Part shown: positions 13,785 through 53,860 of the stretch, in pieces
How positions within the stretch are numbered: position 1 is the first letter of the stretch
How the letters are laid out: every line of letters begins with the position of its first letter
Assembly (NCBI GenBank): GCA_963817915.1
Contig: CAWFQL010000017.1
Span: 160,001 to 224,000 of the forward strand
Direction: 5' to 3'
DNA from: an uncultured candidate division Zixibacteria bacterium
GTDB lineage: Bacteria; Zixibacteria; MSB-5A5; UBA10806
DNA: 64,000 bases
Translations under genes and position numbers: made by a program
The notes under the pieces: model-generated
What the model was told of the DNA's origin: nothing
What the model saw: the letters and a program-made list of their open reading frames with translations, nothing else
Databases searched by the model: none

Positions 13785-15537
13785 TTGAATAATTCTCAAC
13801 CAGAAAATACGAAAAATCCGAATAGATAATGCTGTTAATGGCAAGGCAGAAATTGGCGCATCTACAACACCTTCGAATTTTATCCGTGCCATTATAGATG
13901 ACGATTTAAAAACCAATAAATATGAAGGCAGGGTCCAGACCCGTTTCCCCCCAGAGCCTAATGGCTATTTGCATATCGGACATGCCAAATCGATCTGCCT
14001 GAATTTCGGGCTCGCAAAAGAATATAATGGCCTCTGTAATCTCCGATTCGATGATACCAATCCCAGCAAGGAAGAGGTCGAATATGTCGATTCCATCATG
14101 GAGGATGTCCGCTGGCTAGGTTTTGATTGGCAAGACCGTCTATTTTATGCCTCCAATTATTTCGAAAAACTATATGACTATGCGGTGCAGCTTATCAAAT
14201 TGGGAAAGGCCTATGTATGCGACCTGAACGCCGATCAAATACGCGAATATCGCGGTACACTAACCGCGCCTGGCAAGAATAGTCCATATCGCGACCGTTC
14301 TATAGATGAGAATCTTGATCTATTCAAACGAATGAGAGACGGCGAATTTCCAGATGGTTCGCGCACACTCCGAGCAAAGATCGATATGGCCTCGCCGAAT
14401 CTAAATATGCGAGATCCGACTGTATATAGGATCAAACATGAATCTCATCATAGAACCGGTGACAAATGGTGTATTTATCCGATGTATGATTTCACACATT
14501 GTCTTTCGGATTCGCTCGAACATATCACACATTCGATTTGTACGCTGGAATTTGAAGATCATCGGCCATTGTATGACTGGTTCCTCAATGAGCTTCATGT
14601 CTATCATCCTCAGCAGATTGAATTTGCCCGTCTGAATCTCAATTATACTGTTATGAGCAAGCGAAAACTCCTGCAATTGGTGCAGGAGAAACTGGTCAAT
14701 GGATGGGATGATCCTCGTATGCCCACGATTTGCGGCTTGAGGAGGAGAGGATTCACGCCCGAATCGATACGGATATTCGCAGAACGAATCGGAGTTGCCA
14801 AACGAGATAGCATGGTGGATGTTGCCTTGCTTGAGCATTGCCTGAGAGAAGACCTCAACAAAAGAGCCCCGCGCGTGATGGCGGTTTTGCATCCCTTAAA
14901 AGTCATTATCGATAATTATCCCGAAGGCAAAATTGAAGAGCTCGATGCGATTAATAATCCGGAAGATCCGTCGATGGGCACGAGAAAAATTCCATTCGCG
15001 CGCGAAATCTATATCGAGCAGGATGATTTCCGCGAAACTCCGCCCAAGAAATTCTTCCGCCTGTCGCCCGGAAATGAAGTTCGATTAAAGCATGCATATA
15101 TTATAAAGTGTGAGAATGTGATAAAAGACCCTAAGACCGGCGAAATTCTTGAGTTACATTGCACTTATGACCCCGCAACTCGCAGCGGCGAATCGAATGA
15201 CGGTCGCAAGATCAAGGGCACATTGCATTGGGTAACCGCTGCACATTCATTGCCGGCGGAAGTACGAATCTATGAGAGTTTATTTACCAAGGAAGTCCCG
15301 GATGAGGATTCTGATTTTAAGGCTAATCTCAATCCCAATTCCCTTGAGATATTGAAGGATTGCCGGGTGGAATCAAGCCTCGCGACGGCGGCAAAGCTCG
15401 CACATTTTCAATTTTTGCGGAACGGATATTTTTGTATTGATTACGACTCCGCACCCGGTTCGCTGGTTTTCAATCGTACGGTCTCTCTAAAAGATACTTG
15501 GGCAAAATTGGAAATTCAGAATGCCAAAACGTCATAA
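13785..15537 (+). CDS. glnS: Glutamine--tRNA ligase, +1 frameshift near 13822 in the N-terminus
   Basis: [42 protein letters not shown] then TTG at 13785. Confidence 0.93.
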
Positions 15538-42638: not shown

Positions 42639-42709
42639 CTGGGGGACAGGGATTTGAACCCCGATACTCAGATCCAGAGTCTGATGTCCTGCCGTTGGAC
42701 GATCCCCCA
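42639..42709 (-). tRNA. tRNA-Gln (anticodon CTG), CCA not encoded
   Basis: Reverse complement TGGGGGA...TCAGA-CTCTGGA-TCTGA...GGTTCAAATCC...TCCCCCAG; U1-A72 pair. Confidence 0.95.
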
Positions 42710-42817
42710 TTCAAATAGAATGTCTTTTGATAAGCTGTGCAACTTAAAGGGGGGAAGTACGCTGCAACAGGCCTTCAAAAGACAATCACTATTTATATAC
42801 CTAATCCTGAAAAAATG

Positions 42818-44260
42818 TCAAGCCTTTTCCGCAATAAATTTTAAGGCTTTTTCTAACCTTTTAATACACTCATCTTTGCCCAAAAGTTCCATCATATCGA
42901 AAAGCGGCGGTCCAGCCGTGGAACCCGATAATGCCAAACGAGTTGGATGAATTAATGTCGCCGGTTTGATTTGCGATGATTCGGCTATTTGCATAAGCCC
43001 ATGCTCCAAATTTTTGGCCGTAAAATCATCCATTTTTGCCAAAAAATCCATCCACGGCTCTATTGTCTTCAATAATCCTTTGTCGTTGAAATACTTCTCA
43101 ACCCCTTTCGGCTCGTAATCGAACTCGCCAACGAACAAAAACCGCCCTTTTTCAACAAAATCGGTCAAAACCTGGCACCGTTCCTTGAAAATCGCCACGA
43201 ATTTACGCATCCATTCCCAACGGCTATTTATCCATAGATTCGTAGTTAATCCCGCTTCAATTAGATAGGGGCGAATCAGGTCAATCAGCTTATTGTCATC
43301 GGTCTTGCGGATATATTCGCCATTCATCCAGCCTAACTTCTCCAAATCGAATATCGCATTTGTAGGAATTATCCGATCCAGAGTAAAGACCTCGACCATC
43401 TCATCGACAGTCATTATCTCACGGTCATTGCCCGGCGACCATCCCATCAGCGCGATAAAATTAACCACCGCCTCTTTAAGATATCCCAATTTCGCATAAT
43501 CGGTAACCGCCGCCGCCCCGAAACGTTTCGACATCTTCGCCCGATCTTCACCCAGTATCAACGGTATATGGCCGAATGCCGGCGGCTCTATGCCTAATGC
43601 TTGATAAATCAGAATCTGTTTGAAAGTGTTGGAAATATGATCATTCCCTCGGATTACATGGGAAATCTTCATCTCGTGATCATCCACTACCACGGCAAAA
43701 TTATAGACCGCTCTGCCATCGGATCGGGCTATAATAAAATCATCCAATTCCTTATGTTCGCGGGTAATATCACCAACTACCAGGTCATGGAATGTTGTCG
43801 AGCCATCGGGAATGAAGAGCCTGACCGCGGCCGGCTCGCCCGAATCAATCATCCGCTTTTTTTCGGCTTCGGGCAAATTGTAGCAGGTGCGATCATAACG
43901 CGATGTTATCTTTTGCGCCCGGGCTTCTTCCTGTTTTTGCTTCAAGACTTCCGGCTTGCACCAGCATCGATAGGCTTTGCCTGATTCGAGCAATTGATCG
44001 ACATATCTTCTATAAATATCGAGCCGTTTCGATTGGTACACGGGCGGCTCGTCGGATTCCAGCCCAAGCCATTTCAACGATTCGAAAATTACATCAATCA
44101 TCTCCTGTGACGATCTTTCTATATCTGTATCTTCGATTCGCACCAAAAACTTGCCATGATTATGACGGGCAAAAAGCCAGTTAAATAATGCGGCCCTGGC
44201 TGTGCCGATATGTAAATATCCCGATGGCGATGGCGCGATTCTAACTCTCACTTCAGGCAT
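42818..44260 (-). CDS. gltX: Glutamate--tRNA ligase
   Basis: APSPSGYLHIG, RIEDTD, VIRGNDH, KMSKR. Confidence 0.97.
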   Translation of the reverse strand: MPEVRVRIAPSPSGYLHIGTARAALFNWLFARHNHGKFLVRIEDTDIERSSQEMIDVIFESLKWLGLESDEPPVYQSKRLDIYRRYVDQLLESGKAYRCWCKPEVLKQKQEEARAQKITSRYDRTCYNLPEAEKKRMIDSGEPAAVRLFIPDGSTTFHDLVVGDITREHKELDDFIIARSDGRAVYNFAVVVDDHEMKISHVIRGNDHISNTFKQILIYQALGIEPPAFGHIPLILGEDRAKMSKRFGAAAVTDYAKLGYLKEAVVNFIALMGWSPGNDREIMTVDEMVEVFTLDRIIPTNAIFDLEKLGWMNGEYIRKTDDNKLIDLIRPYLIEAGLTTNLWINSRWEWMRKFVAIFKERCQVLTDFVEKGRFLFVGEFDYEPKGVEKYFNDKGLLKTIEPWMDFLAKMDDFTAKNLEHGLMQIAESSQIKPATLIHPTRLALSGSTAGPPLFDMMELLGKDECIKRLEKALKFIAEKA

Positions 44261-45654: not shown

Positions 45655-46176
45655 ATGCTTAACGCTCTTGCCAATCATCTGAGGTTGCTTGCCGATTCCG
45701 AATCAGACAATTTTCGCCAACTCGTTAAAGACCGCTTAAATGGAAAAGTCACCGATGATCAAATCGGCGTTTTGAAGGAGTTTATTTTTCTGCTACCGCC
45801 CGCATTAAAGCAGTTGGAAGGCTATTGGCGCGATAAGTCAACCCCGGCCGAGGCCAAAAAATTGAGCGGCTACATAATCTCATACATCTATAATCCGCAC
45901 AATTTTATCCCCGAGGATAAATTCGGCCTTTTTGGCTATCTCGATGATTCCTACATCGTAGTTTCAGCATTTTTGCATATTGAGGACCTTTACCTGCGCG
46001 ACTGGCAGAAGAAATCGCGCGCTGAAATGGAATTAGCCAATCGAGCCCGTTCCCTGATGATGGCGCCGAGGCTGGTCATTCCCGAAATTACCGAAAAAAT
46101 CGATAAGATAGTAAGCTCCCTGATGAAAGGTGAAATATCCGGATTCGAAGAAGTTTTCAACAATGGCAATCATTGA
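45655..46176 (+). CDS. YkvA/DUF1232-family protein
   Basis: Y..NP.NFIPE..FG.FGYLDD; AAGGAG RBS. Confidence 0.75.
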   Translation: MLNALANHLRLLADSESDNFRQLVKDRLNGKVTDDQIGVLKEFIFLLPPALKQLEGYWRDKSTPAEAKKLSGYIISYIYNPHNFIPEDKFGLFGYLDDSYIVVSAFLHIEDLYLRDWQKKSRAEMELANRARSLMMAPRLVIPEITEKIDKIVSSLMKGEISGFEEVFNNGNH

Positions 46177-46303
46177 AAGATTCAGCTAAGAATTTCCTAA
46201 TGGCGATCATACCGGTCGCCATTTTTTGTTGTCGTTTAATGTCTTGTAAAAAAATCGTTATCGTCATAAAATCAAATAAATGATTAACTCGGGAGGATAA
46301 TTT

Positions 46304-46636
46304 ATGATGTGGAGATGCGGAGTTTGCGGTTATATTCATGATGGCGATTCAGCGCCTGACAAATGCCCCAAATGCGGCTCGCCCAAAGAAAAATTCGCTC
46401 AAATCGAGGCGGCGGCCGCAAAATTAATCGAACGTGCGCGGCACACCAATCACCTTCATATGAAGATGGCCGCTAAATTGGGCAAGGTAATCAAAATTGC
46501 CGACAAGGGTATCGATGACAATCTCGATCCCGGTTGCCTTGAGATTTTCACCAAGGCTAAAGAACAGGCAAATATTCTGATTCATTCTATTCGCGCCGAA
46601 TTGCAGGGCCACATGAACAAAGGCAAATGGGGATAA
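46304..46636 (+). CDS. Rubredoxin-like domain protein
   Basis: WRCGVCGYIH...CPKCG plus a helical C-terminal domain (GIDDNLDPGC, GHMNKGKWG). Confidence 0.85.
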   Translation: MMWRCGVCGYIHDGDSAPDKCPKCGSPKEKFAQIEAAAAKLIERARHTNHLHMKMAAKLGKVIKIADKGIDDNLDPGCLEIFTKAKEQANILIHSIRAELQGHMNKGKWG

Positions 46637-47008: not shown

Positions 47009-48904
47009 CTATTTTTCCGAAATCCTCTTCGAAACAGCGTCTCTCAATGACGCCCCATCGATACGGCCATTCAATGATTTCTTGACCCAGCCGCAGATAT
47101 AATTGATTCTGTCGTCAGGCTTCTTGAATGTCACATCGGCAGTCTCGAGAATAGATTCCTTAATAGACTCCTGAACCAATTTGTCATTCAGGTTAAGCAA
47201 TTTATATTTCTTGATCAATTCTTCAATTGGCTCTTTGCCGTTGTCGTTCAAAGAACTTAATATCGATGATACCGAATCCTTGGAAATGAGATTTTTCTTG
47301 AATGCGCCGAAAAGCTCGATCAATCCGCCATTGAGGATTTTGATACCCTGGTTATCGGCTATATCCAGATTTTTCAAGAGACTCCAGACCAATATCGGCG
47401 ATAGTTTCAATTTCGAAATTATCTCTTCGAAAATTCCCGAGTACGGAGTCACCACGATCTTTTCCGCCAATTGGCGCGGGACTCCCATCTTCACCCATCG
47501 TTCTTCAATCTTATACGCAGGCTCAGGAAGCTCATCTCTGAGCTTTTTTACCCACTTTGCCGTTATTTCTACCGGAGGGCTGTCTGTATCAGGATACATT
47601 CTATCAGGCCCCGGCAATACTCGTTCGAAACCGGCAGTACCATCGGCAAACGCTTGCCGGGTCTCGTCGGGCACTCCTTTGGTTGCCTCGATAGCCCTGA
47701 TTTTAATTTCAGATAAGGCCATATTGACATCAGCCTGCGAGCCCCACGTTATGATAATGACATCTGTATGCTTGCAGTCGCAGGTCTTTTTGATTTTGCT
47801 CCAGATTGCCGAATTGAATCCAGCCATCACAGGGATATCTGAAACCGCGATATTGGGCATCTGATCCAGGCAGGCTATCACCCTGACACGATCGGAAAAT
47901 TCATCGGCGAATGTTTTTCCTGGCTGAAGCTCCTGGCTCATTATTCCGGCAAATCCCGCCATCTTAATCCCTCGAACCACCCAGCCTTTTTCCAATGCCT
48001 TATTGACGACCGGAATATTGTAATCTCGCAATTGGCCATCTAACTCGAATTTTTCGCCATGAATCGTCATCGGATTAATTCCTCTCACTCCGAGGATTTC
48101 CTTGATTGCCAACAGACCGGCCTGACGTTCTGCTTCGTTGGCAGTGAGTTTCTCAATCATCCAGGTTTGCGGGACTCCCTTAATCTCTGCCCGCTTGCCG
48201 CCTGTGATAGAGACATTGACATCCTGCCTGACACTGCCGATTCCGCGCCTTACTAACCCGCTCGCCTTTAGCAATCGTCCGATAATGGCATCGACTTCCA
48301 TCGCTTCCTTTGGAGTGAGCATATCGGGGGCAGTGATGACCTCTAATAATGGCATCGATAATCGGTCCGTTCTGAATACTATTTCATGGCCGATATCCGA
48401 CACTTCGCGGCAGGCGTCCTCTTCCAAGCAAATATGTGTGATTACAATCTTTCTGTCTTTATACGGCACCCAGCCATCGACACCGACAATCGCTGTCCTC
48501 TGAAAGCCCGTGGGAATCGAGCCATCGAGATACTGCTTTCTCGATACATGCAATTCGTCGACCAGATTGCAATTAAGAAGCATGGCGAGCTTCATGGCGA
48601 TTTCGAGGGCATCGCGGTTTATCGGGAATGGCGGCGTATCATCCATCTCGTAGGTGCAGCAATTTTCTCTGTAAAGCTGATAGACCACATTCTTTTTGGT
48701 TTTGAATTCCATCAATGCTGTACCATCGTATTCGCCTAATTCGGAGAGGGTCGGGCGCATATGCCTTATGATTTCACCATCGGGTTCGTCATTGCGATAA
48801 TGAGCCGGGCAGCGGCAGTAGAGTTTTTTCTCGGTCAGCAATTGCTGATGAATCTCGATGCCGCATTTAAAGCCCATCTGAATATATTTGTCGTCTTGTT
48901 CCAT
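47009..48904 (-). CDS. gatE: Glu-tRNA(Gln) amidotransferase subunit E (archaeal type)
   Basis: GIEIHQQL, RPTLSELGEYD, YEMDDTPP, DGSIPTGFQRT, RRGIGSVRQDVNVSI, insertion domain, PGPDRMYPDTD; 631 aa. Confidence 0.9.
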   Translation of the reverse strand: MEQDDKYIQMGFKCGIEIHQQLLTEKKLYCRCPAHYRNDEPDGEIIRHMRPTLSELGEYDGTALMEFKTKKNVVYQLYRENCCTYEMDDTPPFPINRDALEIAMKLAMLLNCNLVDELHVSRKQYLDGSIPTGFQRTAIVGVDGWVPYKDRKIVITHICLEEDACREVSDIGHEIVFRTDRLSMPLLEVITAPDMLTPKEAMEVDAIIGRLLKASGLVRRGIGSVRQDVNVSITGGKRAEIKGVPQTWMIEKLTANEAERQAGLLAIKEILGVRGINPMTIHGEKFELDGQLRDYNIPVVNKALEKGWVVRGIKMAGFAGIMSQELQPGKTFADEFSDRVRVIACLDQMPNIAVSDIPVMAGFNSAIWSKIKKTCDCKHTDVIIITWGSQADVNMALSEIKIRAIEATKGVPDETRQAFADGTAGFERVLPGPDRMYPDTDSPPVEITAKWVKKLRDELPEPAYKIEERWVKMGVPRQLAEKIVVTPYSGIFEEIISKLKLSPILVWSLLKNLDIADNQGIKILNGGLIELFGAFKKNLISKDSVSSILSSLNDNGKEPIEELIKKYKLLNLNDKLVQESIKESILETADVTFKKPDDRINYICGWVKKSLNGRIDGASLRDAVSKRISEK

Positions 48905-48996: not shown

Positions 48997-49293
48997 CTAT
49001 TCAGTAGTTGCCCGAGGGTATATTTTTGCCCTGCAATCGGTGATAACTTCTTTTGGAATCAATCTTAACGCCAAAATCACCAATAAAGGCACGATTATGA
49101 AATCATCGAGATGCCCAATGATTGGGATGAAATCAGGAATAATATCAAATGGCATCAGCAGGTAACCAACCGCGATTCCAAGCAATATTTTTGCGATTAA
49201 CGGAGTCCTTTTATCTTTTAGAACCAATCGATAAACCGATAGTTCTTTTTTTAGCAAAATGCCTAATTCTTTTAGTTTAGCGGGTATTGTCAT
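48997..49293 (-). CDS. YkvA/DUF1232-family protein
   Basis: YLLMPFDIIPDFIPIIGHLDD. Confidence 0.88.
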   Translation of the reverse strand: MTIPAKLKELGILLKKELSVYRLVLKDKRTPLIAKILLGIAVGYLLMPFDIIPDFIPIIGHLDDFIIVPLLVILALRLIPKEVITDCRAKIYPRATTE

Positions 49294-49363
49294 AAATCTA
49301 TGAAGCCGAATAATTCAAACACGACTCAATTACGACCCGACACGATGAGTTCAAAAAAGAATT

Positions 49364-49762
49364 CTAATTATTATGCGCGCCCTGGGCGATCCAGCGTCTT
49401 ATAAGGTCGATTGTAGTCTGAGGAAGTGGGGTGCCCCCAAATGGCATCTGCGGCTGTCTCGTGCCTTCAAGTTTCTGGATTATAATGCTGCTGTCAGGAT
49501 TGTTGGGTAACACAACCAGGCCAAGATCGCCTCCCTGCATCAGGGATGCGTAACTATCGAGACGCAATCCTCCCGATGGTCCACCAATATGGCACGGGCA
49601 ATTCGAGAAAAATATGGGCGATATATTGGAAGAAAATGACGCCAACGTATCGGGAGGAACCGTCGGCTCATCGGCAATCTTGCCCAAATCCGTGCAGGAA
49701 CTGAAAAGCATTATCGATAATACTATTACGATTGCGGCTAAAATTCTGAAGATATTTTTCAT
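49364..49762 (-). CDS. Lipoprotein with planctomycete-type cytochrome c domain (CxCH motif)
   Basis: Lipobox FSSC; PIF..NCPCH, GGLRLDSY, QMP, WIAQGA. Confidence 0.75.
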   Translation of the reverse strand: MKNIFRILAAIVIVLSIMLFSSCTDLGKIADEPTVPPDTLASFSSNISPIFFSNCPCHIGGPSGGLRLDSYASLMQGGDLGLVVLPNNPDSSIIIQKLEGTRQPQMPFGGTPLPQTTIDLIRRWIAQGAHNN

Positions 49763-49779
49763 CTTACATTCTCATATTT

Positions 49780-50856
49780 TTAAAAGAAGAAATGAAAGTC
49801 ACCGACGAATTGCGTATGCTTTGTCCCATGATCATCGTAATATTTTATCATAGGCTGAATCTCTACAAATCCAATAGGAAAATAATCGATTCCGAAGCCG
49901 TACCTATTGATAACGCCGTTCTTAAGCTCCGTATCGGAATCGTAAAAATCATAAGCAAAGGTCGCCCAGATTCCCTGCGTAATCATGTAATTGAAATTAT
50001 GAGTACTCGCCAATGATTTTTTATGGATTTGCTTATTATCCAGCCAATCTATTTCACCGGTATAGATAAGTTTGGCCCCGAGACCGTTGAAATAGAAAAA
50101 CGGGCCATACATCGATATCGCACCTGCAGGGGTATCGTTTCGCCAAAAAGATGCCCCAGCGCCCAGGCCAAATTTGTTTATATGCTTTCTGAATTCTAAA
50201 CGGGCTGATACTGCCTTCCCCTGATTATCATCGAGCATGCCGGTTGTTCCGTTGAAGACTCCAACATTGGCCGAAATTCCAAATGGGTAGAGCCCGAATT
50301 CGAGTCCGGTATCCATCGAGGTCGGCGGCCAGAGCATTTTCTCGCGCACGAACGATGTATGATCCGCGAATCGCCATCCATACGATGGTTGAAATTTGCC
50401 GACCCTAACGTACCCTTGCCAGGGGAGAATATATCCCATTCCGTACACTTCGAATGAATTATTGTACAGGTCCTTTTTCAGCGCCGCCGAAAAATTCTTA
50501 TCAAATTGAACATCCAGATAGAAATTCCCCTCCATCTGGAAAAATGTGGATTGTTTGACTTCCTTATCATAAATCATCAGCGATCTGGCATCCATTCCAA
50601 TAGAAATATTCTGAGATAGTGACGGCTGGAATTTGGTAATTTCCTCAAATGGTGTCTTGTGAACGGCCAATTCTGTTTGAGCAAAGTATTGAGATCCAAA
50701 TGCTATTCGCATGCCGCCTCCTGTGGGGCTGACATGACAGAGATTGCATTTCTGCTCTACCTTGGCCGCGAATCTCGGCTCGCCATAGGTATTCAATGAT
50801 AGACTCAGAAGAGCTATCGCGCTTAAGATAATAGTTGTCCTGAAATCAATCCTCAT
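49780..50856 (-). CDS. Cyc2-like monoheme cytochrome-porin fusion
   Basis: Signal peptide, PRFAAKVEQKCNLCH...FG..Y, beta-barrel-like body, C-terminal Phe. Confidence 0.7.
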   Translation of the reverse strand: MRIDFRTTIILSAIALLSLSLNTYGEPRFAAKVEQKCNLCHVSPTGGGMRIAFGSQYFAQTELAVHKTPFEEITKFQPSLSQNISIGMDARSLMIYDKEVKQSTFFQMEGNFYLDVQFDKNFSAALKKDLYNNSFEVYGMGYILPWQGYVRVGKFQPSYGWRFADHTSFVREKMLWPPTSMDTGLEFGLYPFGISANVGVFNGTTGMLDDNQGKAVSARLEFRKHINKFGLGAGASFWRNDTPAGAISMYGPFFYFNGLGAKLIYTGEIDWLDNKQIHKKSLASTHNFNYMITQGIWATFAYDFYDSDTELKNGVINRYGFGIDYFPIGFVEIQPMIKYYDDHGTKHTQFVGDFHFFF

Positions 50857-51896: not shown

Positions 51897-51968
51897 GGCG
51901 CTATCGTCTAGGGGTTAGGACGGGTGGTTCTCAGCCATCAAACCAGGGTTCGATTCCCTGTAGCGCTA
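51897..51968 (+). tRNA. tRNA-Glu (anticodon CTC), CCA not encoded
   Basis: GGCGCTA...GGTGG-TTCTCAG-CCATC...GGTTCGATTCC...TAGCGCTA cloverleaf. Confidence 0.95.
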
Positions 51969-51978
51969 CTAAGATTGC

Positions 51979-52032: not shown

Positions 52033-53860
52033 TTATCGTTCTGCTGGCAATTGAAATCTGAAAATCATGAACGCCCACGCGTTCGCAACATAGGCAAGAT
52101 CGCCCGACGTGCTGATATCAACAGAATAGCTCGGAAGATCAAAATTCGCAATTTCGACCGGCGAGGTGGGTGTAGAAATATCAAGAATCCTTAAACCGGA
52201 GCTCGACGAGAATGCATATTTGCCTCTGACAGTCACGATATTAGTATTGCGGCCCAATTCGACCATGCCCACCAAACTTGGCTTTGAGGGATCTGAGATG
52301 TCGATCACCTGAAAACCGTAGAATTTGCCTGTTAAGTAGGCGTATTTATCATCTATAAATATGCCCCCGCCCCCTGCCTTAAGCCGTCCAACCAATACCG
52401 GAGTCGCGGGATTGGAAATATTCAAGACCTGCAACCCCCACCCGCCATCCGCGATATACGCGTAATCTCCAGAAATGGCAACTTCATGGATATATGGAAT
52501 TTTATAATCTGTTGTTAATTTGGGACTGGCAGGGTCAGCGATATTTATGATACTCAGGCAGGAATCCCCGGTCATAAAAATGTAATTCCCTGATACTTTC
52601 ACATAATGAGCCCTGCCTGATTTTGCATATGTTGCCAGCCAATCGAGGATTGGTTATTTCGGAAATATCTATAACTCGCAGGCCGGAATCGGCATCCGCC
52701 ATATATGCGTGAGTGCCCGATACAACCACATCACAGGGGCGACCATTAATCTTCTGGCTTCCCAATATTTTTGGGTTTGACGGTTGAGAGATATCAACCA
52801 CCCTTAAGCCGAAACTAAAATCCGCTAAATAGGCGTAGTTGCCGGATATGAATAATCCGCTTAAGCGTCCCGGAGTATCATATCTTCCTGCCAATGTCGG
52901 ATTCAAAGGATCTTTAATATTTATGACCTGTATGCCAGTTTCGAATTCTACAATAAATGCGTAGTTGTCTGAGGTTACAATTTTCCCAGGCTTACCAGGT
53001 AGGTCGCATTTACTCGCCAGCGACGGTTTGTCAGGATTGGATATATCTACCACACACATTCTGGTATTTTTAAAATCGGTTACATATGCGTAGTTGCCAT
53101 TTATACATACGCCCATGGCGCAGCCAATCGAATCGATCTTTCCAGCCAGGAAAGGAGCGGTAGGATTTGCGATATTGATAATACGAAGGCCATTAAATCC
53201 GTCAGCGATATAAACGTAATTGCCATTGACCAGCAAATTATCTGCATAATGCAGCGAATCAAAGCTACCCGCTAACGAAGGATTTGCGAAATTGGATAAA
53301 TCCATTATCCGAAGCCCGCTCCAATCGGCAATAAAAGCACATTTCCCCGCGACATAAATATCGGAGGCTGAGCCTCTTGTATCAAAGCCGCCAACTAATT
53401 TGGGACTGGAATTATCGGAAATATCTAACAGCTCTAATCCGGAATACCCCTCGGCCAGATAAGCGTAGCTGCTCGAAACAAATACCCCATTGACTCTAGC
53501 CCGAGCATGATAATTACTCTTTAGCACGGGATGAACCGGATCGGATACATTAAGGATAAAAAGCTGCGAATCCGCGGCGATATAAGCATGTTTCGCAAAA
53601 ACATATATTGCCTTGCCTTCTTTGGGGAGACAGGTTTGACTCAGAAGAGTTGGAGATGCGGGATTTGAAATATCCAGGACGACCAACCCATCCACGAACG
53701 CGCAATAAGCGTAGTTGCCCTCGATCTCCATGTCGCGAATACCGCTCCACAATGTCGATCCAACATATTCGATTGTTTGCCCAGATGCCGGGGCTCGCAG
53801 GATTGTTAAAAAAAGAATTATCGAAAAGAATTTCAGTAATTTTTTCGATAGGCCATTCAT
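52033..53860 (-). CDS. Secreted LVIVD-repeat (beta-propeller-like) protein, split by +1 frameshift near 52622
   Basis: Signal peptide and more than 12 repeats of GNYAY.A....GL.V.DIS.P..P. Confidence 0.85.

Follow-up and report, generated by a model that had tools for sequence, protein, structure and literature searches.

A bacterial GatDE amidotransferase beside GlnRS and AsnRS in a Zixibacteria genome, and its possible role in tRNA-dependent asparagine formation

We examined a stretch of 64,000 nucleotides (the window) from an uncultured candidate division Zixibacteria bacterium, positions 160,001 to 224,000 of contig CAWFQL010000017.1 in assembly GCA_963817915.1, and focused on gatE, a gene predicted to encode one subunit of the transfer RNA (tRNA)-dependent amidotransferase GatDE. 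The host assembly comprises 3.33 Mb in 22 contigs and is 93.9% complete, with 2.74% estimated contamination; the window, and gatE with it, is part of a contig of 593,703 bp. The host is a Zixibacteria-type bacterium that has both glutaminyl-tRNA synthetase (GlnRS) and asparaginyl-tRNA synthetase (AsnRS). What is new is that GatDE was never the sole candidate route to Gln-tRNA(Gln) in the genomes of this class, that asparagine synthetase A (AsnA) is depleted where GatDE is present, that asnA takes the slot of gatE in one relative, that asnA, gatE and gatD stand in a row in a Phycisphaerae genome, and that the host has neither AsnA nor a clear housekeeping AsnB. We propose, with a probability of roughly 0.42, that this GatDE is kept, in the manner of GatCAB, for tRNA-dependent asparagine formation, perhaps acting on both substrates. 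The proposal gives a testable idea of why bacteria with GlnRS and AsnRS would keep GatDE: in these genomes the enzyme would act like an alternative to asparagine synthetase A.

A preliminary description of the window, made from its letters alone, had taken the product of gatE for a full-length GatE with an insertion domain and not for GatB, and the profile searches agree. The protein scored 538.5 bits on the NCBIfam GatE model NF003107 (cut-off 456) and 483 bits on TIGR00134 (cut-off 319.55), and it remained below the cut-off on all six GatB models (best score 167.4 vs 338). According to Pfam, residues 13-453 belong to a GatB_N catalytic domain into which a GAD (AspRS-like) domain is inserted (301-397), and residues 521-628 form a GatB_Yqey tail. 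Over its whole length the protein could be aligned with the two archaeal GatE chains of known structure, 1ZQ1_C at 352 bits and 2D6F_C at 338 bits. Its residues H19, E161 and E188 align to His15, Glu157 and Glu184, which are described in PMC2330236 as essential Mg-site residues of M. thermautotrophicus GatE; they are invariant in 12 bacterial GatE homologues and at least 95% conserved in 120 representatives. The protein also kept 58 of the 59 positions that are conserved in the family (at least 95% in 120 full-length representatives), the sole exception being a change from Phe to Tyr.

The same description had noted that the window contains no gatD. This is correct, but an intact gatD was found on another contig of 704 kb (C12; Table 1), which gave the sole match in a GatD profile search of the whole genome. 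The encoded protein scored 515-521 bits against cut-offs of 324 and 310 (515 bits for the cut-off of 324) and 422 bits against 1ZQ1_A. Its motifs GTGGTIASR, HGTDTM and RKMH align to 1ZQ1_A and 2D6F_A, and by this motif alignment the asparaginase-type Thr nucleophile and the Thr-Lys-Asp triad are kept.

The presence of both subunits was then scored in 41 genomes of the class and in 50 GatE genomes from outside it; both sets are samples with many incomplete genomes, and GatB and AsnB status was scored for only some of the 50. GatD was above the cut-off in 23 of the 41 class genomes and GatE in 20, with contig-end fragments in G002 and G025. GatE was found in 22 of the 23 GatD genomes, and 18 genomes lacked both. 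The exception, G013, is a single contig with an intact gatD (518 bits), in which no gatE was recovered by the family model or by the window's protein. The two genes are adjacent in seven class genomes and unlinked in the window's family; the joint retention and joint loss of unlinked genes argues for one function. Among 80 named gatE loci, gatD was inside the fetched locus in 58; of the 55 loci that extend 2 kb or more to either side of gatE, 10 were without it. Genes for glutamyl-tRNA synthetase (GluRS), GlnRS, aspartyl-tRNA synthetase (AspRS), AsnRS or AsnB were found within 4 kb of gatE in none of the 80 loci. As a separate observation, the only gltX match in G013 spans residues 101-477.

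GatDE is presented as archaea-specific and glutamine-specific in the relevant passages of reviews (PMC2330236, PMC1635274, PMC9499178), and our literature searches turned up no paper on bacterial GatDE. A pattern scan of one genome per species, based on the motifs CTYEMDD and KQYLDGSI, which the window's protein has in common with public bacterial-branch GatE, matched at least 598 stretches, of which at least 589 were confirmed. The 80 retained matches were titled Zixibacteria, Ignavibacteria, Aminicenantes, Acidobacteriota, Planctomycetota, Bacteroidota, Calditrichota, Cloacimonetes, Caldisericia, Myxococcota and others. In an exhaustive GatE profile search, the representatives of 3198 clusters matched at E <=0.001, and those of 619 still did so at E <=1e-30. 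The GatE tree (neighbour-joining, as all trees here, and without support values) was built from 120 full-length representatives and rooted on three Zixibacteria GatB, after 31 of 151 candidates had been dropped for a length outside 590-705 amino acids (aa). The window's protein was placed in a clade of 34 sequences and the remaining 86 formed a second clade; by the tree as by the profile scores, it does not cluster with GatB. Three of 10 tree clusters that were looked up had organism names: candidate division CSSED10-310, which is bacterial, belonged to the first clade, and the Heimdallarchaeota and Thermoprotei clusters to the second. The closest named homologues are labelled Zixibacteria (64-69% identical), and identity was 43-55% to bacterial GatE of other phyla and 30-40% to archaeal representatives. 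The GatDE of the host is thus native, inherited vertically, and belongs to a bacterial branch that is found in at least 589 species genomes.

The solved archaeal enzymes (Pyrococcus abyssi, 1ZQ1; Methanothermobacter thermautotrophicus with tRNA-Gln, 2D6F) have the same domain order of cradle, AspRS-like insertion, helical part and YqeY-like tail and the same Mg-site residues, and the window's host likewise has a GatD with the asparaginase Thr, Thr-Asp and Lys motifs. The host differs from the archaeal systems in being bacterial and in having GlnRS and AsnRS; its tRNA-Gln has U1-A72 and not A1-U72, its gatD and gatE are unlinked, its GatE falls into a different clade, and in the genomes searched GatDE never stands alone as the route to Gln-tRNA(Gln). 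In most named loci of the bacterial branch gatD is within the fetched locus, whereas the window's gatE has no adjacent gatD. The window's GatE also retains a recognisable tail, while the match of many relatives ends at about residue 500. Three loci with archaeal titles (L109, L110 and L128; Thermoplasmata, Thermoplasmatales or Thermoplasmatota archaeon) carry a bacterial-branch GatE with 48-53% identity; two of these were checked and both had GlnRS, which may mean that the records are mistitled or wrongly binned.

GatDE is apparently not needed for glutamine in these bacteria. The preliminary description was right that the host also encodes GlnRS: the score of its glnS product (Table 1) was the second highest of the 32 class genomes with GlnRS above the cut-off, and the frame has no internal stop. 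The host has two tRNA-Gln genes, the CUG gene of the window, for which U1-A72 had already been noted, and a second one with the anticodon UUG that was found in the whole-genome search; neither carries the archaeal-type A1-U72 pair, and both have U1-A72 with G73. No GatB was detected in the genome and the best GatA-like match reached 208.3 vs 481.1, so that GatCAB was not found, though GatC was not searched for. In none of the 23 class genomes with GatDE was it the only candidate route to Gln-tRNA(Gln): GlnRS was above the cut-off in 20, and the other three (G014, G020 and G025) had GatB. Outside the class, 42 of the 50 GatE genomes have GlnRS and five of the eight without it have GatB; the last three are genomes of uncertain completeness.

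Asparagine gave a different picture. AsnRS was found in the host (616.2 bits), and its tRNA-Asn(GUU) has U1-A72 and G73, as tRNA-Gln does; no AsnA and no AsnRS-like paralogue were detected in the genome. Two genes of the AsnB family pass the broad model TIGR01536 (517 and 465 bits) but fail the E. coli-type model PRK09431 (355 and 305 vs 499). They adjoin glycosyltransferase and sugar dehydratase genes, which is a context of sugar modification, and the best specific match of the larger one was to the XrtA/PEP-CTERM amidotransferase model, below the cut-off of that model. One of the two is split into open reading frames (ORFs) of 511 and 170 aa beside a sugar 4,6-dehydratase gene (L016 723-2712, host contig C16), by either a frameshift or an assembly error. 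Judged from these models, the genome seems to have no clear housekeeping AsnB. Genes of the AsnB family were found in 27 of the 41 class genomes, and their distribution was complementary to neither AsnA nor GatDE.

In the class, AsnA was present in 12 of the 41 genomes: 2 of 23 with GatDE vs 10 of 18 without it. The pattern was similar for any amidotransferase (AsnA in 3 of 28 genomes with one vs 9 of 13 with none), and AsnA occurred in 1 of the 12 genomes whose only amidotransferase is GatDE. Fisher tests gave p values of 0.0003-0.004, uncorrected for kinship, with 0.002-0.004 for the comparisons on GatDE and on GatDE as the only amidotransferase (1 of 12 vs 9 of 13). The amidotransferase-free genomes without AsnA were G012 (69% complete), G033 (88%), G016 and G038. 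In another phylum, the complete chromosome G081 has GatE and GlnRS, and neither GatB, AsnA nor, by the AsnB model applied, AsnB was found in it, as in the host.

The contrast was strongest in the window's own family, where AsnA was found in 0 of 8 genomes with GatDE vs 5 of 6 without it. The two GatDE-less AsnA genera of the family grouped together in 0 of 200 AspRS bootstraps, and one of them joined a GatDE genus in 170 of 200 (85 of 100 when GluRS and AspRS were concatenated). Since the two genera are not sisters, the family must have seen at least two exchanges, or sortings-out, of gatDE and asnA. Between families of the class, AsnA sequences share 70-83% identity, whereas the GluRS and AspRS of these families share only about 55-60% with the window's genome; this suggests transfer of asnA within the class. 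At three AspRS positions (460, 468 and 519) the two AsnA genera of the family show parallel changes; none of the three is in the anticodon-binding domain, and in the class as a whole none is exclusive. We also considered the His/Leu position of the AspRS motif RD(H/L)GG, which we take to be a mark of non-discriminating AspRS; it was dropped because it follows phylogeny and not amidotransferase content.

In G003, a genome of the same family in which neither gatD nor gatE was found, asnA lies between the rubredoxin-like and PSCyt genes that flank gatE in the window. This slot (L189 11713-14548) contains two tandem DUF1326 genes and asnA, and the gene for the 358-aa protein also flanks it. The asnA assignment is based on 277 bits with Pfam AsnA and 310.5 bits with TIGR00669 (cut-off 292.8). 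No gatE remnant was detected in the G003 slot, nor an asnA remnant in the gatE slot of the window (all E above 1 in both searches). In two congeners of G003 (G007 and G011), asnA is 1.7 and 2.2 kb from gltX. Where asnA and gatD occur together in Zixibacteria they are close: divergent and 0.5 kb apart in G021, and 3.3 kb apart in G023. In a Phycisphaerae genome, asnA, gatE and gatD are consecutive on one strand. The suggestion in the preliminary description that GatE might be repurposed for another substrate gains support from these asnA data.

The genes with their intact catalytic residues, the gene inventory, the tRNA ends and the patterns of distribution and position are observed. On the proposed reading, GatD and GatE would further form an active complex in the host, its acceptor would include mischarged tRNA-Asn, and AspRS would also charge tRNA-Asn. 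GatE would be the tRNA-binding kinase/transamidase subunit, and GatD its ammonia-releasing, asparaginase-like partner, encoded on the other contig. By homology, GatD would hydrolyse Asn or Gln, the ammonia would pass through a tunnel to GatE, and GatE would use ATP to phosphorylate the side-chain carboxyl of the mischarged aminoacyl-tRNA before amidating it. The complex would read the U1-A72 pair that is common to tRNA-Asn and tRNA-Gln, as bacterial GatCAB does, and its selective value would lie in the conversion of Asp-tRNA(Asn) to Asn-tRNA(Asn), possibly along with that of Glu-tRNA(Gln). As tRNA-Asn and tRNA-Gln both have U1-A72, a GatDE adapted to that pair would lose one discriminator between them.

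The asparagine reading is favoured because of the precedent of GatCAB beside AsnRS and GlnRS and because of the shared U1-A72. U1-A72 is given in PMC1635274 as the identity element by which bacterial GatCAB recognises tRNA-Asn, and in PMC4206432 Thermus, Deinococcus and Bdellovibrio are described as retaining GatCAB, for tRNA-dependent asparagine synthesis, although they also have AsnRS and GlnRS. The resemblance to these species (Thermus thermophilus, Deinococcus radiodurans and Bdellovibrio bacteriovorus) is that the amidotransferase is likewise retained despite both direct synthetases, that tRNA-Asn has U1-A72 and that AsnA is absent, and the class shows a negative association between amidotransferase and AsnA. 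Unlike in those species, the enzyme here consists of GatD and GatE and not of GatA, GatB and GatC, there is no second, archaeal-type AspRS, and no GatDE is known to act on Asp-tRNA(Asn). A broader form of the proposal, in which bacterial GatDE would be an Asp-tRNA(Asn) or dual-substrate amidotransferase in hundreds of species, adapted to U1-A72 and interchangeable with AsnA at the same slot, is put forward tentatively, somewhat short of even odds.

Several points weigh against a role in asparagine formation. Every characterised GatDE, in the accounts given by PMC1635274 and PMC2330236, is archaeal and amidates only Glu-tRNA(Gln). The bacterial and archaeal branches of GatE are told apart by only seven positions, at one of which GatB has the bacterial and at another the archaeal state, and among these positions there is no sequence sign of an altered GatE pocket. 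The host has one AspRS, of bacterial type (709 bits), and no second one, and in 39 genomes no AspRS column separated any of three groupings or followed the presence of an amidotransferase. Genes of the AsnB family that are above the TIGR01536 cut-off, and that may make asparagine, are present in the host and in 10 of the 11 genomes that have both GatDE subunits and lack GatB. In 11 class genomes both GatCAB and GatDE are present, one of which is redundant under any reading. Because the genomes are kin, the AsnA association corresponds to perhaps 4-6 independent events, and the finding of AsnA in 3 of the 50 cross-phylum GatE genomes has no matched control. The row of asnA, gatE and gatD fits the supply of an amide donor as well. 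Finally, no Asn- or Gln-rich leader ORF was found in nine upstream regions of gatE, gatD and asnA, one of which was read on both strands.

The alternative that survives best, although we consider it less likely than a role in asparagine formation, is that GatDE serves glutamine only, as a second route beside GlnRS that would clear Glu-tRNA(Gln) made by an imperfect GluRS or act as a back-up when glutamine or GlnRS is limiting. The protein is above the equivalog cut-offs of Glu-tRNA(Gln) amidotransferase models, and the glutamine specificity of the characterised enzymes and the lack of a sequence sign of an altered pocket, given above, speak for it. According to PMC3927822, some bacterial GluRS1 charge tRNA-Gln(CUG), and gatE is 1.3-3 kb from gltX and tRNA-Gln(CUG) in five genomes of the family; the distance of about 3 kb noted earlier for the window measured 2.75 kb to gltX. 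The pairing of gltX with tRNA-Gln(CUG) was observed at 21 of 39 GluRS loci of the class, with or without an amidotransferase, and all 21 tRNAs have U1-A72 and G73; this linkage is independent of amidotransferase content and is thus uninformative about GatDE. None of the GluRS columns separated genomes with an amidotransferase from those without one. No genome of the class depends on GatDE alone for glutamine (0 of 23), and the three GatDE genomes without GlnRS all keep GatCAB. An enzyme of the archaeal kind would moreover have to read tRNA-Gln without A1-U72, and the negative association with AsnA would be left unexplained. The dual glutamine routes that the preliminary description had suggested may exist, but they gained no positive support from the GluRS columns or from the distribution of GatDE.

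Six GluRS columns separated GlnRS-less from amidotransferase-free genomes, and one of them, position 449 (motif RLALSGxT-X-GP, window about 42914-42916), was exclusive: it is M, F or V in all five GlnRS-less genomes of good quality, whereas each of the 33 remaining sequences has T, A, K or G there. The window's GluRS has Ala449, the state of genomes with GlnRS, which is a further point against the glutamine-only route. As a single hit in about 480 columns, position 449 is only a lead as a candidate marker of non-discriminating GluRS in the class. The Arg358 rule for GluRS, which PMC3927822 treats as phylum-specific, was dropped: the corresponding residue here is R361, its equivalence to Thermus Arg358 being an estimate from coordinates and the KER motif, and this column is invariant in 38 of 38 sequences, including five genomes without GlnRS. 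It is the same even in genomes that need a non-discriminating GluRS and is thus uninformative.

Some observations on gltX and its tRNAs stand apart from these comparisons. It is odd that gltX is paired with a tRNA that its product should reject (window 42639-44260; GluRS loci L028-L066). G006, a single contig, has two full-length gltX genes (L036 and L066), 70% and 69% identical to the window's; each is followed by tRNA-Gln(CUG), and one adjoins gatE. The tRNA-Glu(CUC) of the window (51897-51969) has a G1-U72 wobble and A73, and tRNA-Glu(UUC) on contig C9 has G1-C72 and G73.

An improbable alternative is an ammonia-fed module for the amide donor. Ammonia would be built into Asn by AsnA, or into Gln in other phyla by an enzyme resembling glutamine synthetase, and GatD would hydrolyse this donor, the acceptor tRNA being left open. 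The Phycisphaerae row and the closeness of asnA to gatD in G021 and G023 are in its favour. Such a module predicts that AsnA and GatDE co-occur, but the counts for the class and for other phyla are low, the window's genome has no AsnA, and G003 keeps asnA without gatD or gatE.

Still less probable is that glnS is defective in the window's genome through the loss of its start codon, with GatDE as the working route to Gln-tRNA(Gln). No ATG, GTG or TTG was found between the upstream stop at 13786-13788 and the conserved N-terminal motif SNFIR (window 13786-13970). Translation from the first canonical start, a TTG at 13969 that immediately precedes the HIGH motif, would truncate the Rossmann fold. 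In each of the seven relatives examined, a canonical start precedes SNFIR. The body of the gene is intact, with an open frame of 582 codons and the score given in Table 1, and in-frame ATT, ATA and ATC codons, which are starts in translation table 11, are present in the start region; ATT at 13849 is roughly as far from SNFIR as the starts of G003 and G007 are. A rare start codon, a recent loss of the start codon or a consensus error in the assembly may account for this. The possibility that glnS is a pseudogene, raised in the preliminary description, is thus answered for the body of the gene and not fully closed for this genome, which lacks a canonical start. As a general explanation of GatDE it fails, since relatives with an ordinary glnS start (G001, G006, G009 and G019) keep GatDE.

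That GatDE is a decaying relic without present function is very unlikely. In favour of a relic, every direct route is present on paper. Against it, neither of the two unlinked genes is truncated and each retains its catalytic residues, 22-23 of the 41 class genomes keep them and the rest have lost both, and the branch extends over at least 589 species genomes. Least credible is an assembly chimera or archaeal contamination, for which the 22 contigs and the estimated contamination could be cited, but gatE and gatD lie inside large contigs with a GC content of 0.446 vs 0.448 for the genome, GC is even along the window, the contig with gatE also holds the bacterial GluRS and GlnRS genes and that with gatD the AspRS gene, and the nearest homologues bear bacterial names; gatE is native to the genome, because the synteny of its locus is common to relatives.

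In the textbook view of archaea, GatDE serves glutamine and GatCAB serves asparagine. If the asparagine proposal is true, this split would change, and so would the view of how amidotransferases co-evolve with tRNA identity elements and the evolutionary accounts that confine GatDE to the archaeal side; if it fails, the window would hold one more ordinary bacterial GatDE.

Table 1. Positions of gatE, gatD, the glutamine-related genes and the genes flanking gatE. Positions refer to the window, except for gatD (host genome G000, contig C12).
Feature	Position	Strand	Description
glnS (GlnRS)	13789..15537	+	open frame 582 aa; conserved part from 13933; TIGR00440 797.7 bits, model positions 1-524
tRNA-Gln(CUG)	42639..42709	-	108 bp downstream of gltX; U1-A72, G73; ARAGORN and Rfam
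gltX	42818..44260	-	single bacterial-type GluRS of the genome, 480 aa; TIGR00464 (gltX_bact) 544.5 bits
DUF1232 gene	45655-46176	+	other flank of the gatE slot; Pfam/NCBIfam
rubredoxin-like gene	46304-46636	+	other flank of the gatE slot; Pfam/NCBIfam
gatE	47009..48904	-	631 aa, ATG start; predicted kinase/transamidase subunit of the GatDE tRNA-dependent amidotransferase
DUF1232 gene	48997-49293	-	upstream of gatE; ORF, Pfam
PSCyt1-like cytochrome c domain gene	49364-49762	-	upstream of gatE; ORF, Pfam
gene for a 358-aa protein without family	49780-50856	-	upstream of gatE; ORF
gatD	G000:C12:554921-556327	-	468 aa, intact; separate contig of 703,876 bp

The three co-directional genes upstream of gatE (48997..50856) possibly form one transcription unit with it, as judged solely from gaps of 17-92 bp; their order recurs in G001. 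On the other flank, the order of the DUF1232 and rubredoxin-like genes (45655..46636) is kept in G001, G006 and G003. In G001 and G006, both of the same family, the whole order gltX, DUF1232, rubredoxin-like gene and gatE recurs, with a methyltransferase gene next in both, and in G001 the PSCyt and 358-aa genes also come after gatE. A search of the window with Rfam returned two tRNAs and nothing else. Finally, two overlapping ORFs of 441 and 189 aa with LVIVD beta-propeller repeats were observed downstream of tRNA-Glu (window 52033-53860), and they may be one frameshifted gene.

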